This document shows positions 1 through 4,242 of a DNA stretch of 4,242 nt, piece by piece. The notes beneath the pieces were generated by a model. It was given only the letters and a program-made list of their open reading frames with translations, was not told the DNA's origin and did no database searches. The DNA is taken from the IMG/VR virus record IMGVR_UViG_2541047441_000007. One strand, written 5' to 3'. Each line of letters begins with the position of its first letter. The first letter of the stretch is position 1. This DNA is from a virus. Taxonomy: Duplodnaviria; Heunggongvirae; Uroviricota; Caudoviricetes. Made by a program: the position numbers and the translations under genes.

Positions 1-12
1 CAGGAATACGAG

Positions 13-38
13 CGCCGGAAGGCGGCTGGTTTTGTTTG
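13..38 (+). terminator. Possible weak intrinsic terminator for an upstream gene outside the window
   Basis: Short GC stem (CGCC 13-16 / GGCG 21-24, loop GGAA) followed by a T-rich tract (TGGTTTTGTTTG, 27-38). The stem is only 4-5 bp, so this is weak. Confidence 0.25.
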
Positions 39-72
39 AATCTGAGAAACGATTTTGTCGGAGGAAATTTTA

Positions 73-789
73 ATGGAAACCGTATCTGACGCACTGAAAG
101 CACTGAAAAGAGCCTCTTCACATGTGGTGGCAGCTCGCCTTGGAATTAGTCGTGAAGAGGCTGTCAACGAACTGTGGAAACTGAAACGCCGTGGAGAAGC
201 GGATAACAAGGGGGCGATATGGTGGCTGACTCAGGCTGGTGAAAGTGAACCGGTGTCACCGGTACCGAAAGTGACGGCGCAAATGCTGACAGAGGCGATT
301 GAACAACATGGCCCACAAACGGCGGATGAACTGGCATTGATGTTCGGAATTACCTCCCGCCGGGCGAATTCATCGCTGGCAATGGCAATCAGCAAAGGGT
401 GTCTGATTCGCGTGAATCAGGATGGTAAATTTCGTTACTGCATACCGGGCGTTGATTTACCGGCAGAGCCGAAAGCAGCATCCGTAGCTGAAACGGAGGG
501 TAAAGCCCTTCCTCAGCCAGCTGGTGTTGCGTTACCAGTCCAGGAAACGGCTGCACAGGAAGAAATTAAAACAGAAGCGGTGGAGGACATTGTGAAGTTG
601 CAGCAATCGTTCACTGAAGCGAAAGCAGATGACCTGATTCTACCATCGCTGCATGTGGCTAACCGCGAGCTGCGCCGGGCGAAAAGTAATGTTCAGAAGT
701 GGGAGCGAGTCTGTGCTGCGCTACGGGAACTGAACAAACACAGGGATATTCTCCGGGATATTACCGCCACCAGAGAGCAGCAGCGGTGA
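73..789 (+). CDS. Hypothetical prophage protein with two tandem winged-helix-like repeats and a charged, helical C-terminal region
   Basis: ATG at 73 preceded by GGAGGAA (59-65) at 7 nt spacing; the ORF-track start at 55 is a TTG without a better SD. Two similar segments (approx. aa 10-60 and 75-135 of the track ORF) each look like a wHTH: ...[21 protein letters not shown]... and ...[27 protein letters not shown].... TGA stop at 787-789 overlaps the next start. Confidence 0.7.
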
Positions 790-1103
790 GTGGCTGGAAG
801 AAGTGGCGCTGGGCTGAAATCCTGATACTCCGGCAGTGTGCGGGAACGATGAGAGTCGAAAGCATCGGTTATCTGATTGGCCGTAGTGAGTCAGCCGTCA
901 GGACGAAAGCGCGGGAACTGGGTATCAGCATGATGTTACGGGGTGATTATCACCAGTCAGCCAAATGTTCACAGCGTGATATTGAGCTGGCGTGGCAACT
1001 GCATCAGCGTGGTGTACCCCGACGGGAAATTGCCGAAAAGTTTGGGATGAAGTTGGGCGCAGTGAATAACTACGTTTATTTCGACAGGAGGGTTCAGGAG
1101 TGA
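786..1103 (+). CDS. Small protein with two HTH-like repeats (putative DNA-binding protein)
   Basis: GTG at 786 overlaps the upstream TGA (787-789), a coupling arrangement. An alternative ATG at 849 lacks a clear SD. Two internal repeats ([30 protein letters not shown] and [29 protein letters not shown]) are only both complete if translation starts at or near 786. Stop TGA at 1101-1103. Confidence 0.6.
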
Positions 1104-1402
1104 GGGTGAGGGTTTATATCGCCGGTCCGATGACGGGATATGAAAATTTTAACCGCGAGGCATTTCACAAAACGGAAGAGGTGCTGAAACGGGAAGGGCA
1201 TACCGTTTTAAACCCGGCAGTACTTCCGGACGGGCTGACTCAGCCACACTACATGGATATTTGCATGGCAATGCTCCGTTGCGTGGATGCGGTTTACATG
1301 CTGAAAGGCTGGCAGCAGTCGGCAGGTGCAGGGGCTGAGCTGGCACTGGAGGAGAAACCGGGCCATGCGGTGATTTTTCAGGAGGTGGGCAGTGAATATT
1401 GA
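1100..1402 (+). CDS. DUF4406 family protein (nucleoside 2-deoxyribosyltransferase-like fold)
   Basis: N-terminus (M/V)[39 protein letters not shown] matches the characteristic VYIAGPMTG...NF...F......L...GH.V.NP signature of DUF4406/deoxyribosyltransferase-like phage proteins (recognised from memory). GTG at 1100 overlaps the upstream stop; GTG at 1106 with AGGAG (1096-1100) is an equally plausible start. Confidence 0.8.
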   Translation: MRVRVYIAGPMTGYENFNREAFHKTEEVLKREGHTVLNPAVLPDGLTQPHYMDICMAMLRCVDAVYMLKGWQQSAGAGAELALEEKPGHAVIFQEVGSEY

Positions 1403-1709
1403 CCCGGCGATAACGATTGATATGGCCCTGAACGCCGGCCTGGCACTTCTTGGTTATTTCTACATTATGTTCTGCAGCGGACGATGGCTGTCACTGTTGT
1501 TCATGAAAAAATGGAATAAACGCCGTAAGCAGGAGCAACGCCAGAAGGCAATGGATGCATTTTTCGAAGCCTTCGGAATTGACGGCATGGAACCAGGGGA
1601 TCCAGCTCGCGCAATCAGCAGAGGGGGTGTAGTAATCCTTGTATATCGGAGTGAAGAGAAAAATGACGATCACAAAACAACGTGTAGAAGAAATCATATC
1701 CCGCATTGA
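1392..1709 (+). CDS. Hypothetical small membrane protein (one predicted TM helix followed by a basic stretch)
   Basis: GTG at 1392 preceded by GGAGGTG (1381-1387); overlaps the upstream gene by 11 nt. Hydrophobic segment ALNAGLALLGYFYIMFCSGRWLSLLFM followed by KKWNKRRKQEQRQK. The 3' end overlaps the next gene by 47 nt, so the true C-terminus and extent are uncertain. Confidence 0.5.
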   Translation: MNIDPAITIDMALNAGLALLGYFYIMFCSGRWLSLLFMKKWNKRRKQEQRQKAMDAFFEAFGIDGMEPGDPARAISRGGVVILVYRSEEKNDDHKTTCRRNHIPH

Positions 1710-1980
1710 AATGTATGGACATGGTGCAGGGTATATCGCAGACGAGGTTAATGATCTGGCTATACTGGCGCTGAATTTATCAAATATCGCGAACCTGAAG
1801 CGATACGAGCTTGATATGGGAGGTTGCGACTCGTGCGGTCAGGATTGTGGCGCTGATATGACTGAAGATCCTGATGGTGATTATGTCCTGTTTGATGACG
1901 TGGTTAAGTTGTTTGAATTTGATACAACCACTCAAAAGTTAGAAATCCCGGCAAAGGAGGCAGCCAGTGGGCAAGATTGA
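1663..1980 (+). CDS. Hypothetical acidic prophage protein with a Cys cluster (GGCDSCGQDCG)
   Basis: ATG at 1663 with GGAG/GAAGAG upstream (1648-1658). The track start at 1639 is TTG, and ATG 1711 is another possible start. The protein is strongly acidic with a C-x2-C-x3-C motif. Stop TGA at 1978-1980. Confidence 0.55.
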   Translation: MTITKQRVEEIISRIEMYGHGAGYIADEVNDLAILALNLSNIANLKRYELDMGGCDSCGQDCGADMTEDPDGDYVLFDDVVKLFEFDTTTQKLEIPAKEAASGQD

Positions 1981-2404
1981 CTATCAGGCACTGCGTGAGG
2001 CAGCACAAAACTATCAATCGACGCTGGCGTGGTATCAGGCTACCCCGGACAGCCCAAATGCTGAACGGGATTGTGATGCGGCTCTTGCTGCGTTTAAGCG
2101 TCACATCCGTCATCGGGAAGCGGATATTATCGCTGATTTGCTGGATGGACTGGAAGAAGCAAAATCACAACTCAACGAGCAGCGTGAGTATTACGAAGGC
2201 GTTATCTCTGATGGGAGCAAGCGTATTGCTGAACTGGAAGCGCGGGAAGTTCAATTACCGACTCGCTACGACCTTCGATATGGACACCCGATAAATGCAG
2301 ATGAGCGACATGTCATGATACCTAAAGAAAATGGCAGTTGGCTTTACCTGATTGACCTAGAACACGCATTACGCGTCGCTGGCATTCGCATCAAAGGAGA
2401 GTGA
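1967..2404 (+). CDS. Hypothetical prophage protein (helical N-terminal half; possibly ead/Ea22-like, unverified)
   Basis: GTG at 1967 preceded by AAGGAGG (1954-1960) at 6 nt spacing; overlaps the upstream gene end. This is the longest ORF in the region and outcompetes the alternative-frame ORF 1977-2294. Stop TGA at 2402-2404. Confidence 0.65.
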   Translation: MGKIDYQALREAAQNYQSTLAWYQATPDSPNAERDCDAALAAFKRHIRHREADIIADLLDGLEEAKSQLNEQREYYEGVISDGSKRIAELEAREVQLPTRYDLRYGHPINADERHVMIPKENGSWLYLIDLEHALRVAGIRIKGE

Positions 2405-2405
2405 G

Positions 2406-2597
2406 ATGAACGGACAAATATCAATTGTTCGACCAGGAGCATGTGACGATCGCGAAATACGAATGATTATTCGTCTGGCGATGGGGAAAACAATAACTGC
2501 TCTCATTACTCCAGAAAATCTCGCATTAGCATTAACAGGAAAGTCAGACATGCCAGTAGAGCTAAAGCTGCGAAATGTTGAGATTAAGGTGAAATAG
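2406..2597 (+). CDS. Hypothetical small protein (63 aa)
   Basis: ATG at 2406 one nt after the upstream stop, with GGAG at 2396-2399. Stop TAG at 2595-2597. Confidence 0.55.
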   Translation: MNGQISIVRPGACDDREIRMIIRLAMGKTITALITPENLALALTGKSDMPVELKLRNVEIKVK

Positions 2598-2599
2598 CT

Positions 2600-3157
2600 A
2601 TGACCACTATTACCAAAGATCGACTGCTGACAATCCAGCATTGGCGCGAAACATACGGACCGGGTAGCAACGTTGTGCTTCCAGCAGAAGAAGCGGAAGA
2701 GCTGGCACGGATTGCGCTGGCATCACTGGCAGCAGTATCGGATGAACGAGCAGCCTATGAATTATTTATGGAGAAGCGTTTCGGAGAATCTGTAGATCGC
2801 CGCAGAGCAAAAAATGGCGATAGAGATTACATGGTATGGGATATGGCGCTTGGCTGGATTATCTGGTGTCACCGCGCCGCCATGCTTCAGGCTGGAAACT
2901 TTCGGGAAAATAAGGGTTCGTCAACCAATAATTTTCGGATAATCTCGGAAACGTCAACCAACTCTCCGGCAATCCCTGATGAGGTGTTGTCCGCAATCCT
3001 GAAGGTCGCCAGGCTTCGTGCAGATTTCGATGCTTCTGAAGTGGACAGGCGAGGTATCGGTAGTTGTCTGGATGAGGCCGAGCAAGAACTTATCGTTACC
3101 ATTAACGAATACGCCAGTCAGATCGCAGTAGAAGCGACACAGGGGGAGAACCAATGA
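2600..3157 (+). CDS. Hypothetical prophage protein (185 aa; possibly ead/Ea22-like, unverified)
   Basis: ATG at 2600 preceded by AAGGTGA (2586-2592), 2 nt after the upstream stop. Stop TGA at 3155-3157 overlaps the next start (ATGA). Confidence 0.65.
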   Translation: MTTITKDRLLTIQHWRETYGPGSNVVLPAEEAEELARIALASLAAVSDERAAYELFMEKRFGESVDRRRAKNGDRDYMVWDMALGWIIWCHRAAMLQAGNFRENKGSSTNNFRIISETSTNSPAIPDEVLSAILKVARLRADFDASEVDRRGIGSCLDEAEQELIVTINEYASQIAVEATQGENQ

Positions 3158-3231
3158 GCCGGCCAGATGCATTTGCAGGCGTTGCTATAGCTATTGCTTT
3201 TCTAGTATATGTTATTTGTCGGTGGGGGTAA
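3154..3231 (+). CDS. Unannotated 25-aa hydrophobic mini-protein (MSRPDAFAGVAIAIAFLVYVICRWG), predicted single TM helix
   Basis: ATG 3154 overlaps the upstream TGA (ATGA). Strong SD AGGGGGAG (3141-3148) at 5 nt spacing. Hydrophobic core AFAGVAIAIAFLVYVI. TAA stop at 3229-3231. Absent from the ORF track because of the length cutoff. Confidence 0.5.
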   Translation: MSRPDAFAGVAIAIAFLVYVICRWG

Positions 3232-3266
3232 AAACGTTCGCCGGGATTCACACCAAAGGAGGGAAT

Positions 3267-3371
3267 ATGTCGGATGATATTTCACTGGCAATGGAAGGCG
3301 CTCTGGCTGTTATTGCTGTTGTGGGTGTTTACTGCCTGGTTGTGTTTTTGATGGAGCGCCTGGGGAACTGA
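3267..3371 (+). CDS. Unannotated 34-aa hydrophobic mini-protein (MSDDISLAMEGALAVIAVVGVYCLVVFLMERLGN), predicted single TM helix
   Basis: ATG 3267 preceded by a near-consensus SD AAGGAGGG (3256-3263). Acidic N-terminus, then a 20-residue hydrophobic stretch, then a charged tail. TGA stop at 3369-3371. Confidence 0.55.
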   Translation: MSDDISLAMEGALAVIAVVGVYCLVVFLMERLGN

Positions 3372-3381
3372 ATTCATTCCG

Positions 3382-3397
3382 TATGGGAATTCCCATA
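3382..3397. promoter_or_regulatory. Perfect 16-bp palindrome TATGGGAATTCCCATA; candidate operator or hairpin between the mini-protein genes and the hok promoter
   Basis: The sequence equals its own reverse complement. It lies 10 bp after the 34-aa ORF stop and 14 bp upstream of the predicted hok -35. As RNA it could form a 6-bp stem with an AAUU loop, but no U-tract follows. Confidence 0.4.
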
Positions 3398-3411
3398 TCG
3401 GGCAAAACGGT

Positions 3412-3439
3412 TTGCTGTAAAGCGAGAGTTAAGTAGAAT
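3412..3439 (+). promoter_or_regulatory. Predicted sigma70 promoter of the hok/mok mRNA
   Basis: -35 TTGCTG (3412-3417), 16-nt spacer, -10 TAGAAT (3434-3439). The predicted start (~3446, GGGUGCUUGAGG...) matches the conserved 5' end of hok-family mRNAs as I recall it from plasmid R1. Confidence 0.6.
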
Positions 3440-3491
3440 TGCTGCGGGTGCTTGAGGCTGTCTGCCTCGGGCATGCCACCGTAAGGCAGAC

Positions 3492-3566
3492 AGAGAAAAG
3501 CCCCAGTTAACATTACGCGTCCTGCAAGACGCTTAACATTAATCTGAGGCCCAATCTATGCTTCAC
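3492..3566 (-). ncRNA. sok: Sok-like antisense RNA (type I antitoxin), predicted
   Basis: Antisense to the hok mRNA leader and the mok start codon (3558-3560). On the minus strand an imperfect 16-bp hairpin (complement of 3506-3543) is followed by GGGGCUUUUCUCU. Position and layout parallel R1 Sok. The ends are approximate. Confidence 0.5.
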
Positions 3567-3770
3567 AAACGTAGGTTAGCCTCTTACGCGCCGAAAGGCA
3601 AGGAGAAGCAGGTTATGAAGCAGCAAAAGGCGATGTTAATCGCCCTGATCGTCATCTGTTTAACCGTCATAGTGACGGCACTGGTAACGAGGAAAGACCT
3701 CTGCGAGGTACGAATCCGAACCGGCCAGACGGAGGTCGCTGTCTTCGTAGACTACGAATCTGAGAAGTAA
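3558..3770 (+). CDS. mok: mok-like reading frame (modulator of killing) overlapping hok, here in frame with hok
   Basis: ATG at 3558 opens an ORF that continues in frame through hok. The leader sequence AGCCUCUUACGCGCCGAAAGGCAAGGAGAAGCAGGUUAUG resembles the R1 mok/hok junction. Whether it is translated as a separate product is unknown. Confidence 0.5.
   Translation: MLHKRRLASYAPKGKEKQVMKQQKAMLIALIVICLTVIVTALVTRKDLCEVRIRTGQTEVAVFVDYESEK
3573..3601 (-). promoter_or_regulatory. Predicted promoter of the Sok-like antisense RNA
   Basis: On the minus strand: -35 TTGCCT (plus 3601-3596), 17-nt spacer, -10 TAACCT (plus 3578-3573). This puts the start at ~3566-3565, inside the 5' end of mok, the same layout as R1 sok (TTGCGC / TATCCT from memory). 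Confidence 0.45.
3615..3770 (+). CDS. hok: Hok/Gef family type I toxin (51 aa, small membrane toxin)
   Basis: Translation MKQQKAMLIALIVICLTVIVTALVTRKDLCEVRIRTGQTEVAVFVDYESEK is near-identical to chromosomal Hok/Gef proteins as recalled (HokD/RelF, HokC/Gef). ATG 3615 with GGAG at 3602-3605; TAA stop at 3768-3770. Confidence 0.9.
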   Translation: MKQQKAMLIALIVICLTVIVTALVTRKDLCEVRIRTGQTEVAVFVDYESEK

Positions 3771-3819
3771 GAGACCAAGCGGGGGAGTAATCTCCCGCCA
3801 CCTCTGATGTGTCAGGCAT

Positions 3820-3834
3820 CCTCAACGCACCCGC
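3820..3834 (+). other. Fold-back-inhibition (fbi)-like 3' element of the hok mRNA
   Basis: CCUCAACGCACCCGC (3820-3834) is complementary to the predicted 5' end GCGGGUGCUUGAGG (3444-3457) with a single bulged C, as expected for 5'-3' pairing in hok mRNAs. A separate hairpin lies at 3779-3799. Confidence 0.55.
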
Positions 3835-3889
3835 GCTTTACCATACTGAAAATGCTGTTTGAATGTTCATCTCTGAAAGAGGACTATGA

Positions 3890-4234
3890 ATGAAAAAGGT
3901 ATTGATTGCAGCACTTATTTCTGGTGTGTCTTTTGGCGCTTTTGCACAGCAGGGCGGTTTCCAAGGGCCTGAAGCAGAGCGTTCAACAGTAGCGCAGGCA
4001 AAAGAACTGAAGGATGATGCATGGGTTATCCTTGAAGGGAGCATCGTTAAAAAAGTGGGTGATGAACGTTATGAGTTTCGTGACAATAGCGGGACAATTG
4101 TCACGGATATCGATGACAGCATATGGGCCGGTCAGAATGTTTCTCCGAAAGACAAAGTAAGAATTGAGGGTGAAATTGATAAAGACCTGAGCAGTGTTGA
4201 AGTGGATGTAAAGGCACTGAAATTATTAAAGTAA
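3890..4234 (+). CDS. YgiW/YdeI (BOF) family periplasmic OB-fold protein with N-terminal signal peptide
   Basis: ATG 3890 preceded by AAAGAGGA (3877-3884). Signal peptide MKKVLIAALISGVSFGAFA with a likely cleavage after AFA. The mature part (...AWVILEGSIVKKVGDERYEFRDNSGTIVTDIDD...VRIEGEIDKD...VEVDVKALKLLK) fits the BOF/YgiW pattern from memory. TAA stop at 4232-4234. Confidence 0.85.
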   Translation: MKKVLIAALISGVSFGAFAQQGGFQGPEAERSTVAQAKELKDDAWVILEGSIVKKVGDERYEFRDNSGTIVTDIDDSIWAGQNVSPKDKVRIEGEIDKDLSSVEVDVKALKLLK

Positions 4235-4242
4235 CCGTCCCT

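Follow-up and report, generated by a model that had tools for sequence, protein, structure and literature searches.

The window analysed here comprises 4,242 nucleotides of a virus of the class Caudoviricetes (IMG/VR record IMGVR_UViG_2541047441_000007). Positions 3404 to 3842 of its plus strand hold a complete and intact hok/mok/sok type I toxin-antitoxin module. This confirms what an earlier sequence-only reading had claimed, namely a complete module of this type in a prophage: each of the elements that it had listed lies where it had been placed, and the region matches the Rfam family RF01794. The limits of the cassette are those of a homology block common to copies in differing genomic contexts. 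Homology to phage 933W begins at 3404, homology to Sakai Sp6 stops at 3842, and both of these positions are breakpoints in many loci from IMG/VR and from genomes.

The toxin gene hok (3615-3770, plus strand) encodes 51 amino acids and is preceded by the Shine-Dalgarno sequence GGAG at 3602-3605. The identification of Hok at the protein level, also made in the sequence-only reading, is backed by the Pfam family PF01848 (HOK_GEF), which matched over profile positions 1-42 of 42 with 81.1 bits (cut-off 22; E-value 4e-23). Moreover, the protein is the same as HokW of 933W at 51/51 residues (100% amino-acid identity). The NCBIfam Hok models also matched, yet their scores fell under the curated cut-offs (53.6 versus 73), so membership of the Hok family rests on Pfam and Rfam. 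In RefSeq the same protein family goes by the name HokD. The mok-like start that had been read at 3558 is an ATG that opens a frame of 70 codons in the ORF list, in frame with hok and ending at the hok stop codon (3558-3770, plus strand), with the length and layout of the annotated mokW. Of 41 homologues, 37 retain this ATG, and among 24 close copies the Shine-Dalgarno sequence of mok, GAGG (3546-3549), is invariant (entropy 0.0). The mok overlap, with its own Shine-Dalgarno sequence, suggests translational coupling to hok. A local hairpin around the TadA motif was no better than shuffles (z -0.8), and we therefore make no structural claim there.

The genes upstream share the orientation of hok, and the terminator scan called nothing in the 260 nt that precede the cassette (3150-3403). 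In the closest annotated arrangements, the gene order is replication genes, DUF1627 and, further along, DUF551, a 34-aa ORF, hok, a ygiW-like gene, DUF968, RusA and the antiterminator Q. The module thus has the replication genes on one side and Q on the other, in the middle of a nin-like early region, and is not at the end of an operon as had been proposed. The gene directly downstream (3890-4234, plus strand), considered as context only, encodes a YgiW/YdeI-type OB-fold (BOF) protein (Pfam BOF, 113.7 bits; NCBIfam NF033674). It begins 55 nt past the last element of the cassette, the fold-back inhibitory element fbi, with no terminator called between the two. The same pairing of hok and ygiW is also found in 933W.

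Promoters, leader and antisense RNA

The putative hok promoter (3412-3439, plus strand) consists of a -35 hexamer TTGCTG (3412-3417), a spacer of 16 nt and a -10 hexamer TAGAAT (3434-3439), the same sequence that the first reading had picked out. Across 44 non-redundant loci with differing upstream flanks, a TAnnAT -10 lies at a constant distance from a GGG(U/C)GC 5' end. Facing it on the minus strand is a candidate sok promoter (3573-3601), with a -35 TTGCCT (3601 to 3596), a 17-nt spacer and a -10 TAACCT (3578 to 3573). Both of its hexamers are conserved at fixed positions (alignment A2), and the -10 is that of sokW, the very hexamer that has been mutated experimentally (primer YO-421; PMC8621323). 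A simple sigma-70 consensus scan left the hok and sok promoters below threshold (8/12 and 7/12 matches), hence the promoter calls rest on positional conservation and on the mutated sokW -10.

The 5' end of the hok mRNA is most likely G3446, as suggested by homology with the R1-type locus and by the start of the Rfam model. This nucleotide sits 7 nt past the -10 hexamer, and the R1-type locus has the same geometry. The translational activator element tac (3446-3457) begins with this predicted 5' end, 3446 being position 1 of the Rfam model. In the nascent transcript, the small hairpin noticed from the sequence (GAGGC 3454-3458 / GCCTC 3464-3468) is lengthened by RNAfold to a predicted metastable hairpin of 11 bp at 3448-3474 (fold of 3446-3475: dG -18.8, z -5.0); the role of such a hairpin has been described for R1 (PMC9841398). 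The repeat search also returned the 10-bp inverted repeat seen before, CTGTCTGCCT (3458-3467) and AGGCAGACAG (3484-3493), which makes up a 5' stem (3458-3493) in both the full-length and the 3'-truncated fold. In this stem, 933W carries a compensatory change from G-C to A-U, and the corresponding alignment columns (15/47) hold AU in 24 sequences and GC in 11. Further along the leader are the predicted upstream complementary box ucb, an anti-Shine-Dalgarno AAGCCCC (3498-3504), and the downstream complementary box dcb, GCCUC (3579-3583). Another pair of candidates for ucb and dcb, CUCUU and AAGGAG, was dropped, as the element definitions in PMC9841398 point elsewhere.

The predicted Sok antisense RNA spans 71 nt on the minus strand (3496-3566). 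It would consist of a 5' tail complementary to the mok Shine-Dalgarno sequence and start codon, followed by a long hairpin and UUUU. The fold from 3566 to 3496 gave this hairpin with dG -33.2 and z -6.0, and the sequence features of the convergent promoter, hairpin and U-tract that had been proposed for the minus strand are all there. The offsets of Sok from the mok start are those of the annotated sokW in 933W. Meanwhile, the terminator scan of 3150-4242 called none for Sok. Although the Rfam family is called 'sok', its model describes the hok-sense leader, and the match, which is on the plus strand, is no direct evidence for the antisense RNA. In the hairpin helix of Sok (helix 3), six pairs covaried over the 41 sequences and wobble pairs were absent; a helix common to the sense leader and to Sok is expected to be of Watson-Crick pairs only if both strands must fold. 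The 5' tail differs from that of sokW at 4 of 21 positions, and the quantitative behaviour of the two antisense RNAs could differ, even though the changes in Sok and in its target go together. Among close copies, no part of the cassette varies more than the 22-nt segment of tail and target (3551-3572).

Predicted folding and its conservation

A covariance-model scan had been suggested as a check, with the lack of a match speaking against the module. RF01794 matched the leader on the plus strand (3446-3620) over the full model (1-157), with 114.9 bits (gathering score 59; E-value 1.4e-26), a higher score than that of the R1-type plasmid locus (87.2). Matches to the Rfam families sR2 and ceN48 were discarded as weak, chance-level hits to eukaryotic/archaeal families.

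Folding of the RNA, which had likewise been put forward as a check of the pairing of tac with fbi, yielded a minimum free energy structure of 3446-3840 that closes the molecule through its 5' and 3' ends. The fbi element CCUCAACGCACCCGC (3820-3834, plus strand) pairs with tac in both the minimum free energy and the centroid folds. In this full-length fold the mok Shine-Dalgarno region pairs with ucb, and none of 100 shuffles was as good (z -6.35). The sequence-only reading had reported complementarity between 3820-3834 and 3444-3457. This complementarity holds for CCTCAACGCACCCGC (3820-3834), with one bulged C (repeats I4 and I8), while the implied 5' boundary needs amending: with a transcript that starts more likely at 3446 than at 3444, positions 3444-3445 would fall outside the RNA. 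When the RNA was truncated at 3803, these pairings were replaced by tac with ucb and by the mok Shine-Dalgarno GAGGC (3546-3550) with dcb (z -7.25), the latter forming the Sok target hairpin and agreeing with the Rfam consensus hairpin. The positions of ucb are paired in the Rfam consensus as well. The mok Shine-Dalgarno sequence is therefore sequestered in both predicted folds, with different partners. This predicted exchange of partners after loss of the 3' end is the published conformational switch of R1 (PMC9841398), and the nascent, full-length and truncated predicted folds match the three R1 states described in the same work.

Towards the 3' end, a stem-loop GCGGGGGAG-UAAU-CUCCCGC (3779-3798, plus strand) is predicted to protect the processed mRNA, a role shown for R1 (PMC9841398). 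Its helix (helix 15) is paired in 97.7% of cases, and 4 of its 8 pairs covary. No intrinsic terminator was called after fbi in the scan of 3150-4242, and the transcript may run into the ygiW-like gene downstream.

The conservation of the structure was assessed among 41 non-redundant relatives from Escherichia, Kluyvera, Photorhabdus and Pantoea. In these homologues 89.5% of alignment cells were paired, compared with 39-45% when partners were slid, and 169 cells with double changes were counted against 66 +/- 9 in shuffles, distributed over 30 of 129 pairs. The covariation score was 0.149, compared with 0.112 +/- 0.002 in shuffles and 0.047-0.070 in slid controls. The tac/fbi helix (helix 1, 3821-3833 on the fbi side) comprises 12 pairs that are 92% paired in the 41 sequences, with a compensation from U-A to C-G in 11 of them. 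An alignment-free search for 5'/3' duplexes in 88 loci, with flanks of about 90 nt, found the core of tac/fbi in all of them. As the energies were dominated by long spurious extensions, the z-scores from this search carried no information, and the alignment-based pair count was used in their place. At the level of sequence, this covariation is the mark of purifying selection on structure in the hokW/hokD subfamily.

These data bear on the idea that only the Hok ORF is real, expressed as part of a phage early operon, and that the likeness of tac/fbi, Sok and promoters to known elements is incidental. Such an idea would fit the negative promoter and terminator scans, as well as a set of co-oriented upstream genes with no terminator before hok. 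Nevertheless, it is effectively refuted by an Rfam match of this significance in a non-coding leader and by a long-range pairing that is kept through compensatory changes, and the block that recurs in different contexts, bounded at 3404 and 3842, runs precisely from the promoter to fbi. We favour, with a probability of about 0.9, an autonomous cassette of the hokW/hokD subfamily that is inserted into a lambdoid prophage, within its nin-like early region, as judged from homology and structure prediction.

The working of the cassette can very probably be read from homology and predicted folding as follows. The weak, constitutive promoter at 3412-3439 would drive a hok mRNA of about 390 nt from near G3446, whose 5' end would be caught in the metastable hairpin (3448-3474) during transcription. 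In the finished RNA, tac would pair with fbi (3821-3833) and ucb would hold the mok Shine-Dalgarno sequence, making the molecule stable, untranslatable and blind to Sok. Slow trimming of the 3' end to the stem-loop at 3779-3798 would strip fbi, upon which tac would re-pair with ucb (3498-3504) and the Sok target hairpin would be formed by dcb (3579-3583) together with the mok Shine-Dalgarno and start region. If the unstable Sok is present, its pairing to the mok start region would give a duplex that is destroyed. If Sok is gone, mok would be translated and Hok produced by translational coupling, and this inner-membrane peptide of 51 aa would collapse the membrane potential. By analogy with hokW-sokW, which has an identical toxin, Hok would be toxic and would be neutralised by Sok through RNase III-assisted decay of the duplex.

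Relation to known hok loci

Cassettes of the hok/mok/sok kind are already known, hok/sok being a textbook type I toxin-antitoxin system, and the present one carries little weight as a discovery. The cassette is real, but it is ordinary because its toxin is also that of hokW-sokW, a locus of Shiga-toxin phages that has been studied by experiment. The view of the sequence-only reading that the system is known is borne out by the GenBank record of 933W (AF125520), in which mokW, hokW and sokW were annotated from the outset, and by the characterisation of this subfamily in Sp5 in 2021 (Takada et al. 2021, PMC8621323). In addition, hok genes in prophages have already been catalogued in a 2026 preprint.

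The 933W/Sp5 locus is 95% identical to the cassette at the DNA level over 3404-3842, and it has the same mok length (213 nt), the same Sok offsets and the same sok -10. In 933W the same ygiW-like gene lies directly downstream, with 97.4% identity over 3404-4241. The 24 substitutions in 439 nt that distinguish the 933W cassette include 4 in the 21-nt Sok 5' tail and mok start, and one compensated pair of the 5' stem. The two differ also in location: the 933W locus lies past the tail genes beside attR, and is downstream of int only once the genome has circularised, whereas ours is part of the nin-like region in the rightward early operon. Experiments on hokW-sokW showed that HokW is toxic and located at the inner membrane, and that a mutation of the -10 in sokW abolishes antitoxin activity and unleashes toxicity, which is rescued by sokW in trans (PMC8621323).

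The prophage Sakai Sp6 and its counterpart in EDL933, in which hok is annotated as 'MokC' or 'HokD', are 99.8% identical to the window over positions 1-2981 and carry a hok cassette at the same position of the nin-like region. This cassette is only 93% identical to ours, with a different Hok C-terminus and 8 nucleotide changes in the coding sequence. Unlike the copy described here, the one in Sakai Sp6 has a clear hairpin and T-run after fbi and lacks the ygiW-like gene downstream.

The paradigm of the family, hok/mok/sok (parB) of plasmid R1 and of IncF plasmids, has in common with the cassette its promoter geometry and the 5' end motif GG(G/C)(U/C)GCUUGAGGC. It also has the metastable hairpin, tac/fbi, ucb/dcb, the 3' stem-loop and a mok that starts in frame some 57 nt upstream of hok, as well as a convergent sok promoter, putative in our copy, that overlaps the hok Shine-Dalgarno region. 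A 'distant' blastn search from the module did not reach R1-type plasmid loci, and the R1-type locus was obtained through its Hok protein. The notion that mok of R1 is out of frame with hok was discarded: in the R1-type sequence it is in frame, 19 codons upstream, and an in-frame mok is therefore no difference between the two systems. The leader has diverged, and Hok of R1 is about 44% identical to HokW (PMC8621323). The R1-type locus also differs in belonging to a plasmid replicon, with plasmid addiction as its established role, and in having a hairpin and T-run after fbi.

The K-12 loci hokD (relF, in the Qin prophage) and hokC (gef), along with other hok loci, belong to the same Hok subfamily, and hokC-like loci (L017 and L024) align over the full mRNA and retain tac/fbi. 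Pedersen and Gerdes are said to have found in 1999 that most of the K-12 hok loci are either truncated or put out of action by IS elements. The copy in the window might be a similar relic, like several chromosomal loci of E. coli K-12, recognisable but decayed in killing and regulation. Chromosomal hokA, hokB and hokC have been reported as incapable of post-segregational killing (quoted in bioRxiv 10.1101/2025.08.07.668861), in three relatives (L016, L111 and L129) a foreign 3' end has taken the place of fbi, and the promoters described here are weak by consensus. We nonetheless regard decay as very improbable. Unlike the K-12 loci, our copy has all of the regulatory elements in foldable form and intact reading frames, with no IS-like replacement of fbi as in L016 and L129. 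Its Hok is identical to the experimentally toxic HokW and its sok -10 to the functional one of sokW, and the covariation points to purifying selection on the structure of the subfamily.

Role in the prophage

Based on its location in a prophage, the sequence-only reading had suggested that the module serves prophage maintenance or the exclusion of other phages. The prophage role has already been examined for a locus with the same toxin, and the role reported there, which may hold here by analogy, is not exclusion. In Sp5, sokW RNA was seen by Northern blot and disappears on induction, and hokW-sokW hastens lysis and doubles phage release on induction, with release halved by its deletion (PMC8621323). 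By analogy with this one study of one phage, we infer that prophage induction would lead to the loss of Sok and free the toxin, resulting in faster lysis and phage release. Further effects may include killing upon prophage loss and the exclusion of other phages.

It is also conceivable, if rather unlikely, that addiction through post-segregational killing or defence by abortive infection (for example against T4) is the main role of a functional module, in place of help with lysis. In the case of defence, infection by other phages would be aborted when host transcription stops and Sok decays. Both roles have been described for R1 hok/sok, including reduced plating of T4 (cited in PMC8621323); the logic of a stable mRNA with a labile antisense RNA holds for any copy, and prophages show an enrichment of hok genes of about fourfold (bioRxiv 10.1101/2025.08.07.668861). 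On the other hand, the only phenotype measured for hokW is faster lysis with twofold more phage release on induction, and hok is not enriched near defence systems (bioRxiv 10.1101/2025.08.07.668861). Addiction might in addition be weakened by redundancy: of 5426 complete E. coli genomes, 4725 (87%) carry copies, the median being 2 per genome and the maximum 10, and such similar copies might buffer the loss of a prophage if their Sok RNAs cross-react.

Returning to a role in lysis, we tentatively propose that the prophage location may supply the trigger and that the Sok tail may be diversifying, a joint reading that we hold to be doubtful. In the window, the cassette follows the early-right operon and has the same orientation. 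In 933W, it would come to lie downstream of the leftward early operon (cIII to xis and int) after circularisation across att. In both cases, antiterminated transcription upon induction could cross the cassette in the hok-sense direction and run head-on into the sok promoter, and thereby shut off or titrate Sok.

For the method, the value of this analysis is that of a positive control, in which a reading of the raw sequence rebuilt the full architecture to single-base coordinates. If the early operon does act as the trigger, this would explain both why sokW RNA is lost and why HokW emerges only on RecA-dependent induction. If the Sok tail is indeed diversifying, antisense specificity may diverge such that cross-protection is avoided among the 2-10 co-resident copies.

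The hok/mok/sok cassette and its relatives

A complete hok/mok/sok type I toxin-antitoxin module in a prophage was proposed by the sequence-only reading. The observation is confirmed and its interpretation supported, and every motif named was found in its place. The plus strand carries a hok promoter (-35 TTGCTG 3412-3417, a 16-nt spacer and -10 TAGAAT 3434-3439), the arms of a small 5' hairpin (GAGGC 3454-3458 / GCCTC 3464-3468) and a 10-bp inverted repeat (CTGTCTGCCT 3458-3467 / AGGCAGACAG 3484-3493). These are followed by mok (ATG 3558), a 70-codon ORF that shares its stop with the 51-codon ORF at 3615-3770. On the minus strand lies the sok promoter, TTGCCT (3601->3596) and TAACCT (3578->3573) separated by 17 nt. 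The region of the 3' end element fbi (CCTCAACGCACCCGC, 3820-3834, plus strand) is the reverse complement of 3444-3457 except for one extra C. The 51-aa Hok is, as had been claimed, clear at the protein level, matching the full Pfam profile PF01848 (Hok/Gef) with 81 bits. Four independent lines of evidence (protein family, RNA family, folding and comparison of homologues) show that the module is more than a chance arrangement.

By sequence similarity, the module belongs to the hokW/hokD subfamily of hok/sok. A megablast search against phages returned 79 records with Stx phages at the top. In the record of Stx2 phage 933W, mokW, hokW and a sokW antisense RNA of 71 nt are annotated with the relative offsets seen in the window; the 933W HokW is identical to the window Hok (51/51), and the 933W cassette shares 95% DNA identity. 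Of 5426 complete E. coli genomes, 4725 contain matches to the cassette, at a median of 2 and a maximum of 10 places per genome; it is also found on several hundred plasmids, mostly non-mobilizable and of ~90-100 kb. This kind of feature is already known, annotated and experimentally characterised, and is present in most E. coli genomes.

The promoter calls are based on conservation rather than consensus strength, and a simple sigma-70 scan called neither the hok nor the sok promoter. The hok -10 (TAnnAT) lies at a fixed distance from a GGG(U/C)GC start in 44 loci with differing upstream flanks, and the R1-type locus (R1 being the plasmid paradigm) has the same spacing from -10 to first G as the window. 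The sok -10, TAACCT, is identical to that of sokW, in which a mutated -10 (primer YO-421) abolishes antitoxin activity (PMC8621323).

Leader RNA, predicted folds and covariation

The Rfam covariance scan that the sequence-only reading had named matched RF01794 to the non-coding leader (3446-3620, plus strand) over the full model, with 114.9 bits against a gathering score of 59 (E 1.4e-26). Although it bears the name of the "sok" antitoxin, the family model follows the hok-sense strand and spans the stretch between the mRNA 5' end and the hok AUG. It also matches the sense strand of the R1-type IncFII plasmid locus (87.2 bits, L131 232-403, plus strand) and of the 933W, Photorhabdus, Pantoea and E. 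ruysiae loci. RF01794 is therefore in effect a model of the hok leader, and a match alone is no demonstration of an antisense RNA. The convergent promoter and the hairpin with U-tract are present on the minus strand, and in the predicted Sok (3566->3496, minus) a short unpaired 5' end precedes a long interrupted hairpin and UUUU.

The accepted R1 model comprises three RNA states (PMC9841398), all of which predicted folds of the window sequence reproduce. In the nascent transcript, a metastable hairpin is predicted at 3448-3474 (dG -18.8, z -5.0). For 3446-3840, RNAfold gives a molecule closed by the pairing of nt 1-12 with 3821-3833 (MFE -158.8 kcal/mol, z -6.35), which is exactly the pairing proposed between tac, the 5' end element (3446-3457), and fbi (3821-3833); here the mok Shine-Dalgarno (SD) region pairs with the region of the upstream complementary box (ucb) at ~3500-3505. 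In the fold of an mRNA cut behind the 3' stem-loop (3446-3803), tac changes its partner to ucb (3446-3453 / 3498-3504), and GAGGC 3546-3550 pairs with the downstream complementary box (dcb, GCCUC 3579-3583) in a hairpin with loop CUUCACAAA, the mok start lying in loop and stem. This hairpin is complementary to the Sok 5' tail. By homology to hokW-sokW and R1, the locus would be transcribed and processed, with Sok-mediated decay and a toxic product; our own analysis demonstrates its sequence elements, predicted folds, conservation and covariation.

For covariation, 130 related loci were collected and reduced to 41 non-redundant full-length mRNAs from Escherichia, Shigella, Kluyvera, Photorhabdus, Pantoea and viral contigs, on whose alignment the window's MFE pairs were counted. 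Paired cells amounted to 89.5%, against 39-45% when partners were slid by 1-3 columns. Double changes occurred in 30 of 129 pairs, and double-change cells numbered 169 versus 66 +/- 9 in shuffles. In the tac/fbi helix, 28 sequences have U-A where 11 have C-G, and four of the eight pairs of the 3' stem-loop covary. One helix (3506-3545, alignment columns 56-106) is common to the hok leader and the Sok terminator hairpin; it contains Watson-Crick pairs only, in 41/41 sequences, with 6 pairs double-changed and none with a one-sided G-U change; other helices are rich in G-U. Such a pattern is expected if both strands must fold, and agrees with selection acting on the fold of each.

In some copies fbi is gone: two (L016, L129) carry a common foreign sequence (...AACTTAAGGGTTGAACCATCTGAAG...) instead and a third (L111) another. 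Insertion or rearrangement seems to have caused these changes, which recall the K-12 hok loci inactivated by IS elements. In a Photorhabdus temperata locus (L030, 1356-2706), three tandem hok leader matches lie within 1.4 kb (at 1356, 1985 and 2603), which points to tandemly repeated cassettes in Photorhabdus.

The mok start and the variable Sok tail

In a comparison of 24 close copies, no part of the cassette varies nearly as much as 3551-3572, which holds the Sok 5' tail and the mok start codon with the first mok codons: column entropy averages 0.89 bit there and 0.0-0.4 elsewhere (mok SD 0.0, sok promoter 0.16, hok CDS 0.12). The mok ATG and SD do not vary, while Mok residues 2-5 change from copy to copy almost without exception. 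sokW differs from the window Sok at 4 of 21 tail positions and at only 1 of 50 hairpin positions. Since Sok and its target are two strands of one DNA they always match, so the tail could diversify in specificity. Its variability may reflect diversified antisense specificity among the 2-10 co-resident copies per genome. According to the R1 study, R1 hok is not silenced by any of the five chromosomal Sok RNAs (PMC9841398).

Of 41 homologues, 37 retain the mok start codon, but its frame relative to hok is not constant. In 30 of them the two frames agree, which yields a Hok lengthened at its N-terminus to 64-70 aa. One extra nucleotide (GGTCAAGG) creates a long +1-frame ORF and turns the sok -35 into TTGACC, and a leader shorter by 1 nt yields a 19-codon ORF ending at the hok start. 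This pattern suggests selection on ribosome traffic and not on the Mok protein.

Within hok, TACG at 3753-3756 (the Tyr47 codon TAC and the G of Glu48) is invariant in 41/41 homologues. This tetranucleotide is the motif at which A-to-I editing by TadA reportedly turns Tyr into Cys in hok mRNAs (bioRxiv 10.1101/2025.08.07.668861). The local fold places CUACGAA in a 7-nt loop, in a hairpin no better than shuffles.

Gene setting and role in the prophage

Upstream of the cassette runs a series of co-oriented small phage genes (DUF1627, DUF4406, Ead/Ea22-like and others). Directly before the cassette lie two short hydrophobic ORFs of 25 aa (3154-3231) and 34 aa (3267-3371), each with one predicted membrane-spanning stretch. 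Neither has a match in Pfam or NCBIfam; the latter is a "hypothetical protein" in RefSeq genomes (WP_001278450.1 / ECs_5710). The module had been placed at the end of a prophage operon, which does not hold: the closest annotated arrangement, that of E. coli 2012C-4227, reads repressor, cro-like, YdaT, replication genes, DUF1627, DUF977, DUF551, the 34-aa ORF, hok, ygiW-like, a hypothetical gene, DUF968, RusA and Q, so the cassette lies in the middle of the early-right region.

Window positions 1-2981 share 99.8% identity with the nin-like region of Sakai prophage Sp6 / EDL933, where another hok copy, more diverged (93%), occupies the same site. The DUF551 gene is divergent in its 3' part (2981-3168), and 3404-4241 is 97.4% identical to 933W. 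These identities make the window a mosaic. The block common to all contexts extends from 3404, 8 nt before the -35 hexamer, to 3842, 8 nt after fbi, and the cassette acts as a discrete mobile unit. Recombination breakpoints recur at its edges (3404, 3842) and between the hok -35 and -10 hexamers, where homology begins in many loci (~3423-3438).

A YgiW/YdeI-type OB-fold gene (3890-4234) starts 55 nt after fbi and accompanies hok at 96-97% identity in many Stx-phage contigs. No terminator-like hairpin with T-run follows fbi in the window copy (3835-3889) or in 933W, unlike in the R1-type locus; Sp6-type copies do have such a hairpin with T-run, CCCGCTTCGGCGGGTTTT, directly after the common block. 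As no terminator-like site follows fbi, the hok transcript may run on into this gene.

Hok is enriched in prophages (bioRxiv 10.1101/2025.08.07.668861). In 60 of 73 distinct contexts the longest upstream ORF points the same way as the cassette, and in 933W the cassette lies on the strand of the leftward early genes (from cIII to xis and int), immediately on the other side of att. Transcription that reads through from early operons on induction and runs into the sok promoter would be a plausible trigger. R1 hok/sok is documented to act in addiction and in excluding other phages, and both are possible roles here as well. In the Sakai prophage Sp5, HokW is toxic and located at the inner membrane, and sokW counteracts it in a partly RNase III- and Hfq-dependent manner (Takada et al., PMC8621323). 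Upon RecA-dependent prophage induction sokW RNA vanishes and HokW appears, and deletion of hokW-sokW delays growth arrest by ~40 min and halves phage release (PMC8621323). By analogy, the role of hokW-sokW in lysis and phage release is the best-supported one for the window copy.
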